The notes under the pieces are model-generated. The model was not told the DNA's origin. It saw nothing but the letters and a program-made list of their open reading frames with translations, and made no database searches. The position numbers and the translations under genes were made by a program. This document shows positions 21,904 through 33,452 of a DNA stretch of 64,000 bases, one piece after another. The DNA comes from an uncultured Verrucomicrobiae bacterium (GTDB lineage: Bacteria > Verrucomicrobiota > Verrucomicrobiia > Limisphaerales > Palsa-1400). Every line of letters begins with the position of its first letter. Position 1 is the stretch's first letter. The stretch lies in contig OY969763.1 in NCBI GenBank assembly GCA_963702845.1, positions 4,768,001 to 4,832,000 on the forward strand. Reading direction: 5' to 3'.

Positions 21904-24850
21904 ATGCAACTAAGGACAATTCTTTGCGCACTGGCGGTGTGCATTTCATTCACGGTCTTTGCAGACAACGTCACACTGATCGACCTGAAACCATTCGTCG
22001 GCCGCTCCCCTTTCGACATCATCAAAGCGAATTGGTTGTTACCGCGCGGCAATCACGTATTCGACGGCGTGCCATGGAAAATTGACGGTATGATTTTACT
22101 CTACGGGACCAACCCGGTGCAGAAAAGCAAACCAGCGCGCACAAACATCAACGACATCCCAGTCGGTCGAAAGTTCGAAGTGCTACATTTGCTCGCCGCC
22201 GCCCAGCAGACATCGACTGACGGGACTGTTATTGCTAAAGTCCACCTCAACTACGCCGACGGCACCGAGACGACCCTCGACATCCGCTACGGAAATCAGG
22301 TGCTCAATTACATCGGCCCGTGGCACAGAGCCGAGAAGCCCCTGAAAGACAAAACGGTTCACCAGGCATGGCACGCGCAATTCGGCCCATCAGCAAATCA
22401 CGACGAGTATTTGCGATTGTTCCATGTGCCGCTGATCAATCCACACCCCGACAAAGACGTTCGCGCCATTTCGTTGCAATCGACAAAAAAAGCCGCGGCG
22501 CTGATCGTTGCAGCAATCAGCGTCGGTTCATCGAATCAACAATCACTACCCAACGAAGACCTGGGCAAAGCGCCCTTTCCGGATTTGCGTCCGCGTTCTG
22601 GTGAATTAGCTACCGGGGAAGGTTTTGTTTATACGCCAGATGGAAAACCAATTAGCGGCGCGCTAGCGAAAGTTGTTGCGGCGCGGAATTACAGCAGCGG
22701 AACACTAACGGAAAATGAAAACGACGCAGAAACGACAACCGACAGCAATGGACATTTTACACTGCACAATTTGCCAGACGACAATGCGTATCGGGTGTTA
22801 ATCGCAGCGGCCGGTTTTCAACCTTACGTGTACCACGGGATCGATGCCAAATCAGATCCGGTTCAAGTGCGACTGGAGAACGCTACCAACCACATCGGAA
22901 CGTTTGCCGCGCGCGCGCGCATCGTTGACCTCAACGGAAAACCCATTCCTCATGCCATGGTAGAACGTGACGGCGTTGGCTATGGCACCGGCAGCACGAG
23001 TTGGGGAGAACAAGACGTTCCTGAGTACGTCCGTGGCAGACACGAATGGGGAATTCGTTTTATCGCGCGACAAGGCGTTCAACCGTGTGCAGGTGAAAAT
23101 CCGCGTTCCAGGGCTTGCGCCGTTGCACGATTGGATTTCAGTAACGAACAAGGCCACAGTGCTGGAGATGGGCGCAGGCGCGACCCTTCGTGGACGAGTC
23201 TTTGATTTCGATGGCAAACCTCTCGGCAACGTTAAGCTCGGAATCACCGGGGTCGATCGAAACTCGGAACTCTTCGCCGGCTCTTATAACACCATGGCCG
23301 ATGCAGACGGCACCTTTGAATTCAAGCACGTCATGCCCCGAATCTCATGGAATTTATACGGCACCGTCACTTCGTTCAAAAAATACGGCGCTCTGCCCGC
23401 GCGGAAAATTATGTCCGGCGCGCACGGCACCGTGAGCGAATTGGGCAACTTGCAGGTCGTCACAGCGTTGCGTCTGGCTGGTCAGGTCAAAACCAGGAGC
23501 GGCGGATCACTCCCAAAAAATCTTACGCTACGTCTCGGCATCGCCAGCGAAGCCGACGGCGAAACTGCCACAGTCGACAAAAATGGGAATTTCGATTTCC
23601 CCGGTCTGTATGCCGCCTCCCTTGACATTTATCTCAACAACGACGGTTGGAAATTGTCTGGAATCAATCGCAGTTTGTCTTTTTGGAACCCCTGGGAGCT
23701 CGTCGGAAAGCTGGAGAAAACTAAAACCGATATGGTGATCAAGATCGAGAAAGGCAGCCGCGATTACGAATATGATAACGACAACGGGAACATGCCCGAC
23801 ACGGATAATCCGTCGAACAGGGAGATTGGTGGTGTGGAAAATCTCGAAGCTAGCGCGATCATCCTCGCTGGTTCCGTGATTGACGAAAAAACAGGCACGC
23901 CGCTCGCCAATTGCAAGATTGTGCCCGGATACAAACCATCCGCTGCAGCCTGGGGGATGGCAGGCACGAGCGCCCCGGAAAAGAACGTCTTCCAAAAGCT
24001 GTTGGAGCCGCTGAAAAAAAAGCAGGATAACTGGTGGGAAAAACCGTATTGGATGCCAGCACGCGCCGAGCACCTCACAAACGGAACCTTTTCGATCCCT
24101 TTCGTTCCGTTGCAAAGCAAGCCCATGTTGCGAGTCGAGGCCGATGGATACGAACCGTTCATTTCAGAACCGGCCCCAACTAGCACGAATATAACCATCC
24201 GGATGAGTCGTGGCCATGGTCCGACCGGAACCGTACTATTGCCCGACGGCAAGCCGGCCACGAAGGCGCAAGTGCTCTATGCCGCCGGATCCGAACAATT
24301 TGGATTGTCCGGTCGGAAATTAGATTTATACGGTTCTCACACGAACGCGTTGGTCCGAACAGCGGCTGATGGAACGTTCACATTCATGGCCCGCGCCAAC
24401 GGCAACCGCTTGTATTTTTCACACCCAACAGGATACGCAGAACAACCTGTGCGCGAAAAAAACCAAAAAGTCGAAGTGCAATTAAAACCTTGGGCGGCAC
24501 TGTCCGGCACGCTCATACAGAGCAACGGTCTGGCCGCCACCGGTGTCCCGTTAGGCCTCACTTTCTACAATGGGACCGACTACGATGGCTCACAACCACT
24601 GCTCCATTACAACGACGGCGAGTGCACCACCGATAGCAAAGGCCACTTCTTTTTCACGAATGTTCCGCCTCGTCGCGTGCAGATTGAACGCATCGTCCGA
24701 AGTGGACGAGGCGGAGGATGGAGTTCGGTGCTGCAAACGTGGACGGAAGTTGAACCCGGCGTGACGAATGACTTGGGCAAAATTACCTACGACCAACCGC
24801 CGGCCAAACCGGTCTTGGAGCAGTTAAAGGAGAAGATGGGGCTGCAGTAA
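21904..24850 (+). CDS. Large secreted protein with repeated carboxypeptidase-regulatory-like beta-sandwich domains, apparent frameshift near 23029
   Basis: Signal peptide; repeated G-V-D-DGKP and TD-NG-F motifs in ORFs 21904..23205 and 22967..24850, which join across one extra base. Confidence 0.75.
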
Positions 24851-24892: not shown

Positions 24893-27800
24893 TTATTTTA
24901 ACTTCTGCCCAACTTCTTCCACCCAAACCGTAGGCGGCAACGCATACGGGCGGAACGTCTCGAGTTGCCCCTCTTGCTCGTTATAGAACAACGCGCGGTG
25001 CAAGCCGAGGCTGCCCGCTTTCGGATTATCAATTAGGCTCGCCGAATCACTGGCGCTCATCTGGAACAGCACGCGCATTTCAAATTCCGTCAGGGCTTTG
25101 CGGCTGAGGAACCGGTTCACGTTGTTGTAAGTGTCGCAAGTGACGATCACGTGAATGCCCACGCTCGGACCCTCGTTGATTAATTGATTGAGCAGCGCCG
25201 ACGGTGCCGCAGCTGTTTCCGCGCTGCTCGAAAAGGAAAAATCTTCTTCGTAACGCAATTTGCCGAACCGCTGAACGTCGCGGATGAAGATAAACATCGA
25301 AGGCGCATCGGCGGGATTTGGAGACTCCGCGCGACTACGCATTTCAGCGACAACCTTCGCGAACGTTTCACCAATGTCGTGCGGCGTCAATCGAGTCACC
25401 TCATGCGGAATCGCCGCAACCACGCGATTGACCAGGTCCGCCTGATTCGAATCCGGCGGCGAACTGTCGAGAACCATAAACCGCACCGCATCTTTCGGAA
25501 ACTGCGCCGCCAATGAAATCATTCCAGTCGTGACGATGCTCAGCACCGCCTCTTCGCGTTGGCCCACGATCAATAAATTGTTGCCGCTTTGCCGGCGGAA
25601 CACCGCTTCCGTCGGGCCTTTGATCGAGTTTGGCGCACCCAGCCACATGTGGGCGAGGTCCGGTTTCTTAGTGGGTGGCGATTGCAGCAGTTGAGCAAAC
25701 GCGACATTGTCGCGGACGTCCGCCGGGGCGTCGCCTTCGTAAACAAGCGGCGCAGGAAACCGTTTACCGCTTTGTGCCGCTTGCTTGTCGCACGCGTTCC
25801 AGATAAGTGTCGCGTTCCTCATCCGAAAGCCACACCGCCTGAAACGGACTGTTCGCTTCGAGCGCGCCGGCGCTGTCGTTATAAATACCTTCGCCGGGTC
25901 GCGTCAGCATGCGCGGCGCGGGATTGCTATCATCCATGATCAGGTAGGCATCGGCTTCGTTACATTGCAGCGCGATGCGAATGACCATCTGCCCAAGCGT
26001 CGTGCGCGCGACCGTGTAAGCGCCGCCCAACGTCTGCGAACCAAGGATGACGTGAATACCGAACGCGCGACCCTGCCGGACAATGCGGTCCAACAACACG
26101 GAAGCACTTTGGAAAATCTTATCGTCCTCAGTGAAAAATTCCTGGAATTCGTCGATCAGCAGCAAGGTCCGCGGCATCGGTTGTCCGGTTGCTTTACGAT
26201 AACCCGGAAGGTCCTGAACGTTATGTTCGCGGAACAATTCACCACGCCGCTTCAATTCCGCGTCGAGTCGCTGGAGCACGCTCAAACCAAATTCGCGATC
26301 GCTTTCAATCGCGACAACACGCGCGTGCGGCAATTGGTGCGTGGCGTAACTCTTAAATTCCACACCCTTCTTGAAATCGATCAAATAAAATTCAACCTGC
26401 TCCGGACTGCACCACAAAGCCAGGTTCGTGATCATCACGTGGAACAGCGTCGATTTGCCCGAACCGGTTTTACCCGCGATCAGCGCATGTTGCCGCGTGC
26501 CTTTGCCAATCGCCAGATACTGGAACTTCGTTGCGCCGGTGCGACCAATCGGCACTCGCAATTCGTTGCCCGTGTCGAGCGACCACAGTTCTCCGTCATG
26601 CGGCGCGACGTGCTCGAATGGAACTTCAACGCGGTTCGAATCACGACTGCTTCGCCCGACTTTGTGAATCAATTCAGTCGCCAGTTCCGCAGTCGGCGGC
26701 TCGTCCAATGTAACATTCACACCCGGCAACGATTCTCCTTCGATCAGGTAATTCGTCAGCGTTTCGCGCGGCACAGGTTTGCTGACGATATGCGCCCCGC
26801 TCTTGCGCAAATCCTCCGCCACCGCCGGGTCCAGACGCTGCCGCGTGTCCCAATGAATCAACGTATACACCCCACAACGCGCTCCGCTCGTCGCGATGCT
26901 CATCAGCCGTCGAATCGCGACCTCGCTGAAGTTGTGTGGAAAATCGGCCACGACCAAGAAATGATATTTCTCAGCGATGTTGCCCGCCTGCTCGTTATAT
27001 TCGACGATCGTGCTGTATTCATTGCGCAAATACATCTGGATGACTTTTTCCATGTGCGCGTTGAGTTCGCCCAGCTTTTGATCAATTTGCTCCGCTTGCG
27101 TCCATATCCGGCTGTTGATGAGATGCTCCTCGTGATCGGCGAGGTGCATGAAGCTGGCAAAATTTTGTCCAAGTTCAACAGGATCGATAATAGTGAAACT
27201 CAAACGTCCCGGCGGCGCCGCCGCGAGCAGGCGCAATACGATGTTGTTCAATGAACCAATCATCTGCTCGCGCCCGACGTCGCCTTCAAATAAAATCGAG
27301 CCTTGTTCCGGATACTGTCAGCAATAGCGGGACCTGAAGTTGCGACGGCCCGGGCAACTGCAACTTGCGAGTCCTTCCTGCGGGTCGCGACCAGCTTATC
27401 GACATCGACGTCCATCGAACCAAACCGCGCCACATGCTCGAATTTCGCCGGGGCAGTCCAACCCTCCACCAAATCACGACTCCACGGCGGAAACATTTTC
27501 TGAGACAACGCCGCGCTCTCCTTCAACTCGCGATAAATCGGCTCCAGCCGATTGTTCCATTCCGCGGTAATCGCGCGCATTTCATTTTCAAACGCCGCGT
27601 TATGTTTTGATTCCTGCTGCTGATAACGGTCCGTCGCCTCTTTTTTGCGCGATTCAATTTCAGCGTTGATGCGGCCCAACTCTTCATTCCGTTCGCGGGC
27701 AATCCGTTCCAGCCGCGCCTTATGCATCGCCTCGTGCCGCGCCACAACGCGCTTCCCTTTCTCTTCCACCAGAGGCTCGGAATCTATCTTATATTGCTGC

Positions 27801-28780
27801 GCTCCGTTCAGCGTCTCGCTCCACTCCTGTTGAATCCGTTCCGTTGTCGCCTGAAAATCCGATTCAATCTGCGCCAATGTCCGAACGCGCCGCGTGTCGG
27901 CCTTCTCCAAACAAATTGCGTGAAGATTACGCGCTTTGCCGAGCGCATCAGAAATTTCCTTCGCCAGCGCTCGCCCTTGCCGCGCCCCAATCTGGTGAAA
28001 TGTCCCGGCCAATACAACCAGCGCACCCGCAATTGCCGCCTGCGACCCCAGTCGTCACGGTCTGAACGCTGAGCTGGTGCAAAATCGGAACCATCGCAAA
28101 AAGCCCAGCCGCAATAATCACCCACGCGACAAAATATTTGAAAACTTTCGTGATGAGCAACCGATTGAAACGCGCAATGTTTTCATCTGCCTTCGAACGC
28201 AACTTTTGCAACTCAGTTAGTAAATCGTGTTCGTTCCCCTCGCGCTGCAAACGGCGTCGCCTGCGCCTTCGTCAACATGCGGGAAAATCTCCGGATACCC
28301 GCTGAACGAATCCTTCGCCGCAGCTTCAGACCGAAATAATGCCTCGTTCTCTTCAGCCAAATGCCGTTTGAAATCTTCACACGCGCGCTCTGTCGCGGCG
28401 ATGTCCGTTTCGCGTTTGCGTTGCGACTGCAGCGTCTCGCGTTGCAGTTTATATTTACGCGACCCCTCAATGTGTTCGATGCGTTCGATCGCCTGTTTCT
28501 TCGCGACCTTATGCGCCTTCGCAATAACGCCGCGCCGCTTCTCGTGCCGAGACTGTTCGTTTACGCCCAGCTTCTTGAACGCAACCTCTGCTTCATCCCT
28601 GCGGGCTGCCAACGTCAACGCCAACTCCTCCAAAGCCGCATCGCGATGCTTCTGATCACGCGTCAGCTTCACCTTCAATTCCTGGCCGGCCTTCTCTTCG
28701 CGCGCGGAAAGATCCGCGATGGCGCTGCGAAGTGCCTGCACCAGGTCGCGAACTTTGGAAACTCCGAGCGCGTTACTCAC
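24893..28780 (-). CDS. EccC/EssC-like multi-domain FtsK/SpoIIIE ATPase (about 1300 aa), split by several apparent frameshifts
   Basis: Coiled-coil and TM N-terminus; degenerate ATPase (FTIIDP...GARCGVY); intact ATPase (AGKTGSGKS, LIDFKKGVEF, LLIDEFQ, RQGRAFGIH); degenerate ATPase (NLLIVGQ...EGPSVGIH); pieces 28217..28780, 27948..28250, 27260..28012, 25764..27263, 24893..25822. Confidence 0.85.
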
Positions 28781-28985
28781 AATCTTTTTTTATTTTCGCG
28801 ATTATCTTGTCGAGTTGATCGATCACACCCGACGCGGCATTCACACTCGCGTTCAATTCTTCCATATAAAGCCGCTCGAACTCGATCGCTTTGTTATCGC
28901 GCCAATACTGCTGCGTTTCACGCCAACGATTGAACAGTTCCTGCGTCACCGAGGTCAACCGGGTTTTGTTCGCCGCAAGACTCAT
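28773..28985 (-). CDS. WXG100-like small helical protein
   Basis: 70 aa helix-turn-helix hairpin with central YWRDNKAIEF; overlaps both neighbours. Confidence 0.75.
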   Translation of the reverse strand: MSLAANKTRLTSVTQELFNRWRETQQYWRDNKAIEFERLYMEELNASVNAASGVIDQLDKIIAKIKKDCE

Positions 28986-29548
28986 GAAGCCTCCTTCTCG
29001 TCTGTCGTTCCGGCTTCAGCAGGCGTCTCGGTCGGCTCGGCAACCGTCGTCGCAGCTCGACCAGCACTTGGCACCGTCACATTCGCGTAAGCTTCCAATG
29101 CCCGAATCGATTGCGCCAGATGCGCATGCGCCTTCGGCAATCCACTTGAAAGGAACGATTGCAAACGCTCGAGCTGCTTGGCCAGCGGCGACACTCGACT
29201 CTCAAAATCGCTGATCCATTTCTTCACGTGCGCCAGTTTCATTTCTGCGTCGGCCAGGTCCCGCTGCGCCTTCGTCACCGCCGTCCGCTCCCCCGACGTC
29301 GATTCGCGCAAGCGCGACATCTCCGCGCTGAACACCGCCTGTTTGGCCTCCTCCAACTTCAACGCGCATCGGCGCACCTGCTTTTCCCAATACATCCGCC
29401 GATCGCTCTCCAGCCACACCCGCAGGCGCACGACCTCCGAATTAATTTCATCCAACGTCGGCCGCGCCTTGTTCAAGTACAACACCAACGCCGCGCGAAA
29501 TGCGTCCAGCGCCTCGATTGACGTAATGTTTGCGCCTTGTTGGGCCAT
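28982..29548 (-). CDS. Coiled-coil protein of the WXG100/FtsK locus
   Basis: 188 aa, amphipathic helices, WLESDRRMYW; ATGA overlap with the next gene. Confidence 0.8.
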   Translation of the reverse strand: MAQQGANITSIEALDAFRAALVLYLNKARPTLDEINSEVVRLRVWLESDRRMYWEKQVRRCALKLEEAKQAVFSAEMSRLRESTSGERTAVTKAQRDLADAEMKLAHVKKWISDFESRVSPLAKQLERLQSFLSSGLPKAHAHLAQSIRALEAYANVTVPSAGRAATTVAEPTETPAEAGTTDEKEAS

Positions 29549-29549
29549 C

Positions 29550-29822
29550 TCAGTGCTGCTTCAAATATTCCTCAATCCGCTGCGCCTTGCGCAGCAGATA
29601 AGGCCCGTGCTGGTTCGAAAGCTCCATGAAATTGTTCAGCGTTTTTATCGTTTGCTTGAACTCCTCCGCGAATTTCACGTGCTCCTGATCCTGCCACGTG
29701 TCGCTTAACTGCGCAAAGCGCGCCTGAAGTGCCGACATTCGCGTTTGCAGGTCGGCATTGAATCGCTTGAGCTCTTCGGCAAATCGCCGCACTTGTTCGG
29801 GATCCATGATCGCCTGGGCCAT
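29550..29822 (-). CDS. WXG100/ESAT-6-family protein
   Basis: 90 aa; DPEQVRRFAEEL N-terminus, central TWQDQEHVKF, no signal peptide. Confidence 0.88.
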   Translation of the reverse strand: MAQAIMDPEQVRRFAEELKRFNADLQTRMSALQARFAQLSDTWQDQEHVKFAEEFKQTIKTLNNFMELSNQHGPYLLRKAQRIEEYLKQH

Positions 29823-30458: not shown

Positions 30459-30512
30459 ATAAATGCATGTATCAGTCCTGCAAAAGAGCGTCTTTTGCAT
30501 CTCTGGTTAAAC

Positions 30513-30890
30513 GTGAATCTACTATCAAAAAAGACTACTCGGTTCGCTGGCTTTACGCTGGTGGAAATCATGATTGTCGTCGCCATCATCGGATTGCTCG
30601 CCGCCATCGCTGTCCCCGGTTTCTTGGGCGCGCGCGCTCGTGCCCAGGAGAGTACCTGTCTTGACCACCTGCGCCTGATCGACGGTGCCAAACAGCAATG
30701 GGCACTCGAAAACCATGCTGATTCCACTATGACCCCGACTGGCCCGCAACTTCGGCCTTATCTTGGCCGTGCGTCTGGTGTTTTGCCTATTTGCCCTGCC
30801 GATCCGGCTCAAACGTTTGCGACGAGCTATAACATCAACGACATGTCGACTACTCCGACTTGCCAGGTTCTGCCCACGCACTTGCCGTAA
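30513..30890 (+). CDS. Type IV pilin / pseudopilin-like protein
   Basis: GFTLVEIMIVVAIIGLLAAIAVP, C...IDGAKQQWALE, CP...C. Confidence 0.9.
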   Translation: MNLLSKKTTRFAGFTLVEIMIVVAIIGLLAAIAVPGFLGARARAQESTCLDHLRLIDGAKQQWALENHADSTMTPTGPQLRPYLGRASGVLPICPADPAQTFATSYNINDMSTTPTCQVLPTHLP

Positions 30891-31369: not shown

Positions 31370-31678
31370 CGGGCCGATTAAACCCCGACTGTCAATTATA
31401 ATCAACAATTCAATTCGAACTCTTTTTGACCCCAGGTTCAGCACAAAAAGTCGGCGACGGTCGGAAAAAAACACTTTTTATCTGACGTGATAAAAAAAGC
31501 GAAAAACAACCCATCCGCCCCCATCCATTTTCAGTTACCACCCTTATTTTACGGCCCTTTTGCACGTTTTTCATGCACCTCAACAAAGCCATCGGCATTA
31601 CAATTTCACCCATCCCGAGACATCTCGTGCCAAGAATTACTTTTCAACCACTCGAAAGTGGGGTTAATTTCTTTTCCA

Positions 31679-33452
31679 ATGACAGACTTGGGAGAACGCG
31701 TCCTGAAAGGCATCCCTGTCTCTGCCGGGGTGTGCCACGGGAAGGTCTTTGTCTTGAGGAAAACCGAACTCGCCATTCCCCAGACGCCTATTCCCGAATC
31801 CGACATCCCCCACCAGATCCATCGCTTTGAGCAGGCGTTAGTGGCAACGCGACAGGAAATTCTCGACGTCCAAAAACAGGTCAACACCGCCCTCGGAGCC
31901 AAAGACGCCAGTATTTTCGAAGCCCACCTCCTGGTCCTCGAAGACCCGACACTAATCGAATCGGTCACTAATTTAATCCAGCAAAAGAAGATCGCAGCAG
32001 AGTCGGCCTTTCACCAATTTGCAGAAAAATATACGGCCACTCTGGCCGCTATCGATGACGATTACTTGCGCGAACGCGCCGCAGATATGCGCGACGTCAC
32101 CGCGCGGGTGCTGAACAATTTACTAGGCCATCCCCAACAGGAACTGCGCAGCTTGACCGAACAGTGCATCGTTATAGCCGAAGATATTCCGCCGTCGCTC
32201 GTCGCGACGCTCGATAAAACGAAGGTCATTGGTTTCGCGACAGACGTTGGCAGCAAAACCTCCCACACCGCCATCATGGCCCGGTCGTTGCAAATTCCGG
32301 CCGTTGTCGGTTTGCAGGATGCGAGTGCCAAAGTCGAGAACGGCGTCCACGTCCTCGTCGATGGTTACAACGGCGTCCTCATCATCAATCCGACCGATCA
32401 GACGTTGTTCGAGTACGGCCAACTGGTCCGACGACACGTCACGATGGAGGAGAAGCTCAAGGACATCCAGGGGCTTCCAGCCGTCACGCTTGACGGCGCC
32501 AAAGTGACGTTGGCGGCAAACATCGAACAGACCAGCGATGTTGATGCTGTAAAATTTTATGGAGCCGAAGGCGTCGGCCTGTTCCGTACCGAATACCTCT
32601 TCATCAATCGCGACACTTTGCCAACTGAAGAGGAACAATACGTAGCCTATCGCAAGGTCGCCGCGGAGTTGAAGCCCGCTCCGGTCATCATCCGCACGTT
32701 GGACCTCGGCGGAGACAAATTTTTGTCACACCTCGCCTTGCCCCAGGAAATGAATCCGTTCTTGGGCTGGCGCGCCATCCGGTTTTGCCTTGAGGAGAAG
32801 GATATATTCCGCGCCCAACTCCGCGCCATTCTCCGCGCCAGTGCAGAAGGGAACATCAAGATGATGTACCCGATGATCACCTGCGTGGATGAGGTGCTAA
32901 AGGCCAATGAATATGTCGAGGAGTTCAAAGCCGAACTTCGCGCCGAAGGTAAACCGTTCGATGAAAAGTTGGAAGTCGGCATCATGGTCGAGATTCCATC
33001 AGCGGCTTTGGCCGCAGGTATTCTTGGCCAAGCACGTCAGCTTTTTCAGCATCGGCACCAACGATCTGATTCAGTATTCGTTGGCCGTCGATCGTTTGAA
33101 CGAAAAGATTGCGCACCTGTACGAACCGACCCATCCAGCTATTTTGCGATTGATCAAAATGACGGCCGATGCCGCTAAGAAACAAGGCATCTGGTGCGGC
33201 ATTTGTGGCGAGATGGCGGGTGATCCGATGCTGACGCCGTTGCTCTTGGGTCTGGGTGTCGATGAATTAAGCGCGGCTCCGCCTCTCTTACCCTGGGTGA
33301 AACTCCTAATCCGCCGTCTGAAAATGTCCGATGCAAAGGAACTGGCAGAGTTCGCCTTGAATTGTGACTCAGGTCGGGAAATCTTAGAGCGGTCGCAAGC
33401 GCTCGCGCAATCGGTTGCTCCGGGTTTGTTCGACCATTCCTTAAAAGTATGA
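31679..33452 (+). CDS. ptsI: PEP-protein phosphotransferase (PTS enzyme I), apparent frameshift near 33026
   Basis: TSHTAIMAR (phospho-His), GVGLFRTE, NPFLGWRAIR, GIMVEIP; continues as FFSIGTNDL...CGEMAG in the next frame. Confidence 0.93.

Follow-up and report, generated by a model that had tools for sequence, protein, structure and literature searches.

A toxin-free four-gene cassette of a WXG100 protein and an EccC/EssC-like ATPase in Verrucomicrobiota: a candidate minimal type VII-like protein pump

Background

What can a WXG100 protein and an FtsK-superfamily ATPase do together in a diderm bacterium when two further small proteins are their only constant company? This question is raised by four minus-strand genes at 24893..29822 of a 64,000-nucleotide stretch of DNA (contig OY969763.1, positions 4,768,001 to 4,832,000; hereafter the window) from an uncultured Verrucomicrobiae bacterium. 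The window is part of a single-contig 6.03-Mb genome that is 89.8% complete, and the negative results given below for the host genome refer to that assembly. An earlier note on this DNA, made from its letters alone, had described the genes as a tightly coupled operon encoding an uncharacterised, stripped-down type VII-like system in a probable diderm. The diderm assignment is now firmer, since the host belongs to the Verrucomicrobiota, its genome holds two Omp85 genes, and the closest relatives of the ATPase carry the titles Limisphaerales or Verrucomicrobiales.

The kind itself is in print, so that "uncharacterised", if taken to mean undescribed, does not hold. A YueA-like family with an active middle domain and solo WXG proteins is named in verrucomicrobia and planctomycetes in Table 1 note 6 of PMC3482391 (Zhang et al. 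2012), and the same ATPase architecture is given in section 10 of PMC11090510 (Bell et al. 2024) for an operon extension of CoCoNuT systems, where these extensions are read as defensive cassettes. A minimal WxG-plus-FtsK set has been described in Helicobacter pylori (PMC4978471), and according to PMC10765036 Gram-negative WXG100-plus-FtsK sets are not confirmed as secretion systems. Within the open full-text literature, with subscription papers and supplements outside its scope, we found no experimental study and no account of a toxin-less, membrane-anchored four-gene form; the anatomy may be partly covered by Anantharaman et al. 2012, Sutcliffe 2011 and Unnikrishnan 2017.

Using profile searches, structure prediction, phylogeny and a survey of related loci, we find that the four genes form a conserved cassette, that the ATPase is best matched by EccC and EssC, and that its partners are small proteins of predicted helical hairpin type. 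We tentatively read the cassette as a minimal type VII-like protein pump, a reading to which we give slightly less than an even chance, and weigh it against membrane remodelling, intracellular defence and DNA translocation.

Results

Four genes in a conserved order

The cassette consists of the following genes, with lengths in amino acids (aa).

29550..29822, minus strand: WXG100-family hairpin, 90 aa, with an HP0062-like W-Q-D turn (PF06013, PDB match, alignment)
28982..29548, minus strand: extended helical hairpin, 188 aa, with a disordered Pro/Ala/Thr/Glu tail (AlphaFold2 (AF2) model)
28773..28985, minus strand: short WXG-like protein, 70 aa, with a W-R-D turn and an invariant C-terminal Cys (motif alignment)
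24893..28780, minus strand: EssC/YueA-like FtsK-superfamily ATPase, about 1295 aa in intact relatives (PF01580, relatives)

A 1-bp gap followed by overlaps of 4 bp and 8 bp joins them, which bears out the tight coupling ascribed to the operon. Their order is not due to chance: in a survey of the best 80 of 591 GTDB loci, 67 had the same full four-gene order, eight were cut by contig ends, and five were without one to three detected small genes. In the host genome, profile searches found one WXG100 gene and one copy of each of the other cassette genes.

The 90-aa protein is a WXG100 protein, as had been claimed. It scores 41.3 bits against PF06013, above the cut-off of 27.3, though its turn is W-Q-D rather than a literal W-x-G; the W-x-D is invariant in 44 aligned rows, across which mean column identity is 79%. 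Its best solved match is HP0062 of H. pylori (PDB 3fx7/2gts; expectation value (E) 3.8e-7), for which PMC3397514 gives a W-x-D turn as well (WRD). Longer WXG homologues numbered 49 and held no recurring extra domain, three of them having been inspected in full.

The 188-aa coiled coil is predicted as one long helical hairpin (helices H3-78 and H81-156, pLDDT 88) followed by the disordered tail. A Foldseek search with this model returned generic coiled coils only, none at E 0.001, with no specific match to PspA, Vipp1 or ESCRT-III. In the 70-aa protein, which has no Pfam match, W21, W28, D30, F36 and C69 are invariant in 47 rows, and the invariant W-R-D-x5-F corresponds to W43/D45/F51 of the WXG protein. 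The motif thus agrees with the WXG100-like character proposed for this protein, but profile-profile support for homology is weak (hhalign against the WXG family: E 0.016, probability 2.8%), and the nearest named Atlas cluster, WXG100 at 0.81, is a lead only. The C-terminus (28773-28790) is a near-invariant D-C-E around the invariant cysteine. Comparison of the 188-aa family with the WXG family by hhalign was not significant (E 0.058), and no significant match came from PDB profile searches with either the 70-aa or the 188-aa family (EsxA at E 1.1). When the three small proteins were predicted as a complex, with residues 1-162 of the 188-aa protein, the score was 0.73; a control in which the WXG protein had been replaced scored higher, at 0.82, and the prediction is counted neither for nor against an assembly of the three.

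An ATPase with one live domain and a stalked membrane hairpin

The features of the ATPase gene, which scores 116.5 bits against PF01580, are these.

27985..28160, minus strand: predicted two-helix transmembrane hairpin, approximate (hydropathy, AF2 model of relative P0001)
26635..27320, minus strand: D1, degenerate RecA-like domain, no P-loop, family-specific (alignment, AF2 model)
25808..26564, minus strand: D2, intact ATPase domain (Walker motifs, alignment)
26474-26451, minus strand: Walker A of D2, GKTGSGKS
~26165-26148, minus strand: Walker B of D2, LLLIDE
24922..25657, minus strand: D3, degenerate RecA-like domain, no P-loop Lys (TIGR03925 EccCb, E 2.7e-5)

Alignment and model bear out a protein of about 1300 aa with three RecA-like domains of which the middle one alone has Walker A and B: both motifs are intact in D2 only (13 rows examined of 49 aligned), and D2 also carries an invariant RQGRAFG arginine-finger region. 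Mean column identity is 0.79 in D2, 0.59 in D1, 0.55 in D3 and about 0.3 in the stalks described below; because D1 and D3 stand well above the stalks, these dead domains appear to be still constrained.

The AF2 model of the close relative P0001, a partial protein with D3 cut short, was built from 56 sequences (pLDDT 81.6, pTM 0.58). It runs from a 152-residue helix (H7-158) through a short hinge, a hydrophobic hairpin and a 186-residue helix (H243-428) to the three RecA-like domains. The hairpin is the predicted transmembrane pair, which appears in relative P0002 as hydropathy peaks at residues 212 and 240, and a transmembrane-like hydrophobic segment is found in 215 of 217 full-length ATPases. 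Judging from the order of secondary-structure elements, both long helices are likely to be cytoplasmic, and they would probably pack antiparallel as a stalk tipped by the membrane hairpin. It had been suggested that N-terminal coiled coils replace the FHA domains of EssC. The N-terminus of P0001 is indeed all-helical in the model, and no FHA domain occurs there or among the precomputed Pfam matches, but the coiled coil flanks the transmembrane pair on both sides.

Relation to type VII and FtsK ATPases

Against a 499-aa fragment of the ATPase, the EccCa profile scores 115.8 bits, FtsK 28.8 and HerA 14; on this fragment no EccC or EssC score reaches its curated cut-off (EccCa 115.8 against 509 bits, EccCb 91.9 against 347 bits). 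The best solved sequence match is 4nh0 (EccC) with 127 bits, FtsK reaching 32 bits, and a structure comparison over the three domains gives E 6e-19 for 4nh0 and 1e-10 for FtsK. By profile, sequence and predicted fold, EccC/EssC are the best matches, ahead of FtsK. A tree of D2 was built from 25 rows, after 13 of 38 had been dropped (six D3 fragments, one long EccC D3, one duplicate FtsK piece and five redundant family rows). In it the window ATPase and its plasmid relatives form a starred clade of 12 rows (100/98). An approximately unbiased test for joining the EccC/EssC D1 rows gave p 0.22 with 25 rows and few outgroups, and a profile of D1 matched six of six distant family members and none of nine EccC, EssC, FtsK or other rows.

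As the earlier note had remarked, EccB, EccD, EssA, EssB and EsaA are not recognisable here. Searches of the genome for EccB and EccD gave no match, and neither did those for EssA, EssB/YukC, EsaA, EsaB/YukD and LXG, while control genomes were positive. The search for EccE also gave none in the genome, but no control genome gave a match either; there is no MycP gene in the operon, no genome-wide MycP search having been made. The missing tested components and the EccC/EssC best matches together support a stripped-down type VII-like set in a diderm. The likeness to EccC of type VII secretion system a (T7SSa; Thermomonospora curvata, 4nh0) and to EssC/YukB of T7SSb lies in tandem FtsK-like domains, two transmembrane helices and WXG100 partners. 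In contrast to both, the P-loop is confined here to D2, FHA domains are missing, D1 is family-specific and none of the tested accessory components is present, so that on its predicted content the cassette is not a member of T7SSa or T7SSb. With the FtsK/SpoIIIE DNA translocases the ATPase shares the motor-domain superfamily PF01580. Unlike them it has three tandem domains and no gamma domain; the sole gamma domain of the genome belongs to a separate, true ftsK elsewhere.

Six frameshifts in the ATPase gene

In the window the ATPase is split into separate open reading frames (ORFs), and the whole length of the gene is covered by intact relatives of about 1295 aa, P0002 being 95% identical to it over D1-D2. 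Set against two congeners and against run X3 contigs, the window shows six single extra bases, near 28291, 28244, 28041, 27369, 27316 and 25786, which account for the breaks, and the frameshifts that had been claimed are thus placed. They are very probably assembly or sequencing errors in a gene that is intact in the cell. That this copy is a recent pseudogene, whatever the family does, is highly improbable. The gene does have six frameshifts in its 3.9 kb, and the crude genome background, itself a lower bound, is 8 in 70.7 kb (54 genes, 49 unbroken), a density more than 10 times lower. However, all six shifts are +1, the in-frame blocks compared with congeners are free of stop codons, and purifying selection is strong (96 synonymous versus 6 non-synonymous codon differences to a congener in D2). 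Furthermore, four of the six extra bases are absent from related contigs, breaks cluster elsewhere too (four in one 456-aa gene), and neighbouring genes also hold window-specific extra bases. One of these, the gene for phosphotransferase system (PTS) enzyme I (31487-33452; named from sequence), is split, with such bases near 31675 and 33023.

Distribution and neighbourhood

The 188-aa gene occurs in 127 of 201 genomes of the host's order, in a single copy each, and elsewhere in the phylum in 7 of 300 genomes, two of these weak. The ATPase turned up in 13 of 41 relatives, the host genome counted, and the module in 4 of 24 within the host's family; Atlas clusters extend both unnamed small proteins (70 and 188 aa) to Planctomycetota. 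In a fast tree of 78 GTDB ATPases, sequences cluster by host group, with 12 changes against 15.5 when shuffled and none of 200 shuffles as low (38 rows unlabelled). This clustering is consistent with mostly vertical descent plus loss. Loci titled Klebsiella, Bifidobacteriaceae, Bifidobacterium or Bacteroidetes (L021, L058, L083, L042) nest among the verrucomicrobial ATPases and are likely mislabelled or mixed bins. One unannotated record among 201 phage records covers most of the query.

A neighbourhood survey, which the earlier note had proposed, was run on the 80 GTDB loci; it showed the cassette kept and no conserved neighbours. Once the cassette genes and apparent opposite-strand ORFs of these had been set aside, clustering revealed no linked accessory gene, the commonest other family being present in eight loci. 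No nuclease, relaxase or integrase partner and no mobile or defence family is conserved near these loci. Insertions into the cassette were seen at L028 (3199-3800, an apparent toxin-antitoxin pair) and L092 (8598-9764, an opposite-strand gene of 388 aa).

Mobile relatives and a putative carrier domain

Middle-only Walker A/B, a stand-alone WXG100 protein with a second WXG-like protein, and a shared clade place the cassette in the family of Zhang et al. and Bell et al. The definition of Zhang et al. is the same, but Table 1 note 6 calls the members mobile versions and itself gives no four-gene anatomy; here there is one copy per genome, the cassette groups by host taxonomy, and no mobile genes adjoin it.

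Among plasmid proteins, five ATPases are similar to the window ATPase across most of D1-D2, and all five adjoin a small WXG-like or helical gene, one of them, at L099, weak. One operon, from Caballeronia, holds VWA, WXG100, 436-aa, 113-aa and 76-aa genes, the ATPase, and CARF, VWA, PP2C and kinase genes, with a nuclease bearing a D-ExK-like motif as predicted toxin. From its gene content we assign this locus to the CoCoNuT III-A extensions. These share with the window an ATPase with an N-terminal coiled coil and three domains, D2 alone being live, together with a pair of WXG100-like proteins and one coiled-coil protein; the Caballeronia example also has the same gene order and belongs to the same D2 clade. 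They lack transmembrane helices and stand inside a defence operon with a coiled-coil-nuclease fusion and a DMP12-like gene, whereas the cassette here stands by itself, with a transmembrane pair and longer stalks but neither a nuclease nor a small partner gene. Nuclease fusions and flanking VWA/TerY-P genes of the III-A type were found neither at the window locus nor conserved near the 80 loci.

HP0062/HP0066 of H. pylori resemble the cassette in the best solved match, the WRD form of the W-x-D turn and the adjoining FtsK-like gene. A relative on a Helicobacter plasmid is an ATPase of 823 aa with no transmembrane segment, linked to a hairpin gene with a WHH nuclease and then an SMI1/KNR4 gene. 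In mobile relatives, the counterpart of the 188-aa gene encodes a hairpin joined to a predicted toxin that varies, and a small immunity-like gene comes next. This toxin-plus-immunity layout is the usual one of exported polymorphic toxins. On two Rhodococcus plasmids (L096 and L099), one ATPase carries a TerD domain at its N-terminus and has ter genes nearby, and the other follows Hsp70, TPR and GrpE genes.

In one genome of the host's family (G012), a divergent copy lies near conjugation-like genes. There the 188-aa profile matches the N-terminus of a 396-aa kinase-like protein (E 5.7e-7), whose C-terminus resembles PI3K/HipA kinases (25.3 bits, below the cut-off of 27.1). The locus (L103, G012:C4:760000-779000) has two WXG genes, the carrier-kinase fusion and a small ORF after it, near VirD4-like, primase-like and methyltransferase-like genes, and is likely mobile. 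A broadened 188-aa profile also reaches a 314-aa neighbour in Rhodococcus (E 8e-4 among 86,218 sequences). The most fitting reading of the 188-aa gene is that of a carrier domain whose C-terminal cargo slot is empty here, no C-terminal cargo domain being present on the window protein. An Atlas cluster of 433 proteins, mostly from Planctomycetota, combines the carrier hairpin with an Imm33-like domain.

Surroundings of the cassette

Downstream of the ATPase and converging on it, two overlapping plus-strand ORFs with carboxypeptidase-regulatory-like repeats (21904-24850), possibly one frameshifted gene, lie outside the cassette. This 3.1-kb stretch is missing from both congeners, where DNA matching ~21800 joins DNA matching 24911. 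Upstream, on the opposite strand, 30495-30890 encodes a prepilin-type N-methylation protein that is syntenic in the congeners only. A scan for promoters and terminators gave no excess over shuffled sequence, and the sequencing-run search listed no RNA run and three DNA runs with small shares.

Discussion

The cassette can be read, if tentatively, as a minimal type VII-like pump that exports, acting on a bundle of three hairpins. A ring of ATPases would hang from the inner membrane on the long helical stalks, the ring being modelled on EccC/EssC, and D2, the sole live domain, would drive the three small hairpin proteins, bundled together, across that membrane. By analogy with EccC/EssC and with LXG-partner biology, the small proteins would dock on the dead domains and assemble as one rod. 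With no linked outer-membrane part, the product would go no further than the periplasm or the envelope, and a pore, if any, would be made by the hairpins or supplied by an unlinked protein of the host. We count in favour of the pump the complete WXG linkage in 67 of 80 loci and the small WXG-like or helical genes beside the plasmid ATPases, the relatives with toxin and immunity genes, the EccC/EssC layout, the transmembrane-like segment of nearly all full-length ATPases and the strong purifying selection on D2.

Several observations weigh against it. The secretion signal motif of type VII substrates is YxxxD/E, and the end of the WXG protein, Y-L-x-Q, lacks an acidic residue at that position. 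The D2 clade stands apart from both EccC/EssC and FtsK and is not nested in EccC/EssC; there is a weak, unstarred grouping with FtsK/SpoIIIE (82/88), and a union with the EccC/EssC D1 rows, absent from the free tree, is not rejected by the approximately unbiased test (p 0.22). No channel or accessory membrane protein was found in the genome, and none is linked in the 80 loci. No cargo is evident in host genomes, which have one carrier-domain gene each. Three longer homologues (P0271-P0273), the only ones returned by a length-restricted search, fuse the 188-aa domain to an Imm33-like domain. The broadened 188-aa profile does not detect the N-termini of the Caballeronia and Helicobacter toxins, which share with the carrier only their position and an L-x-x-Y end motif. 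Nor, in the literature covered, PMC10765036 included, is export known for any family member. Finally, the transmembrane pair is missing from 6 of 71 GTDB ATPases, all of one Prosthecobacter clade and cleanly deleted, five of these six loci keeping the full cassette, and from all five plasmid relatives, toxin-linked ones included. Because it is absent in these two settings, the anchor appears dispensable, which weakens the idea of a channel made by the ATPase; the pair is likely a tether rather than a channel.

A dispensable anchor also suits a non-secretory role, in which polymers of the hairpins would form in the cytoplasm or on the inner membrane face and the ATPase would assemble or strip them in the manner of Vps4/ESCRT-III or PspA, serving the envelope or a stress response. 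We regard this as possible, if rather doubtful. With stalk helices 152 and 186 residues long, the motor would stand well away from the bilayer, as judged from secondary structure only; there is neither cargo nor channel; the cassette is single-copy, highly conserved and clustered by host taxonomy, as a housekeeping function would be; and relatives adjoin TerD, Hsp70 and GrpE genes. Yet the 188-aa hairpin has no specific Foldseek match to PspA, Vipp1 or ESCRT-III, the toxin-plus-immunity layouts of relatives suit delivery to other cells, and the tandem three-domain layout is that of EccC/EssC.

We consider intracellular defence unlikely. On this view infection or stress would be detected by the ATPase, which would then set free or switch on a toxic partner, as has been proposed for the CoCoNuT and TerY-P extensions; here that partner would be unlinked or lost. 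The ATPase belongs to the same clade as the CoCoNuT III-A ATPase, whose extensions are read as defensive in PMC11090510, and presence is patchy across the phylum (7 of 300 genomes) and within the host's family (4 of 24). However, no defence family is conserved near the 80 loci, PADLOC returned generic ATPase-domain matches only, no effector was found, and one copy per genome with taxonomic clustering is unlike typical defence islands. A DNA translocase of the FtsK, HerA or coupling-protein type with the small genes as accessories, to which the weak FtsK/SpoIIIE grouping and the VirD4-like ATPase and primase-like gene (named from sequence) near the G012 copy would point, is most improbable given the missing gamma domain, FtsK and HerA profiles far below EccC, and no conserved nuclease, relaxase or integrase.

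The pump remains the reading we lean towards, with remodelling and intracellular defence as serious rivals. A further, rather unlikely proposal is that bacteria of the Planctomycetes-Verrucomicrobia-Chlamydiae (PVC) group have turned a mobile module for toxin delivery into a domesticated machine free of cargo. Standing on stalks of ~25 nm, its EssC-like ring ATPase would thread WXG100-type hairpins into the membrane or cycle them as a polymer, as Vps4 does with ESCRT-III, with no dedicated channel. If so, the domesticated module would be a WXG100 system for membrane or envelope remodelling, not secretion.

Conclusions

That the kind has been known since 2012 limits the surprise. What appears to be new is the cargo-less, anchored, stand-alone four-gene form, with the 188-aa protein as a putative toxin-less carrier. 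The 2023 review PMC10765036 leaves it to be settled whether anything is secreted by Gram-negative WXG100-plus-FtsK sets, and the four-gene version is among the simplest test cases for this, since it is complete and common, has no toxin or immunity genes, and is accompanied by natural anchor-less and toxin-bearing variants. It could reveal the minimum needed for type VII-like transport, or a non-secretory role of these proteins.

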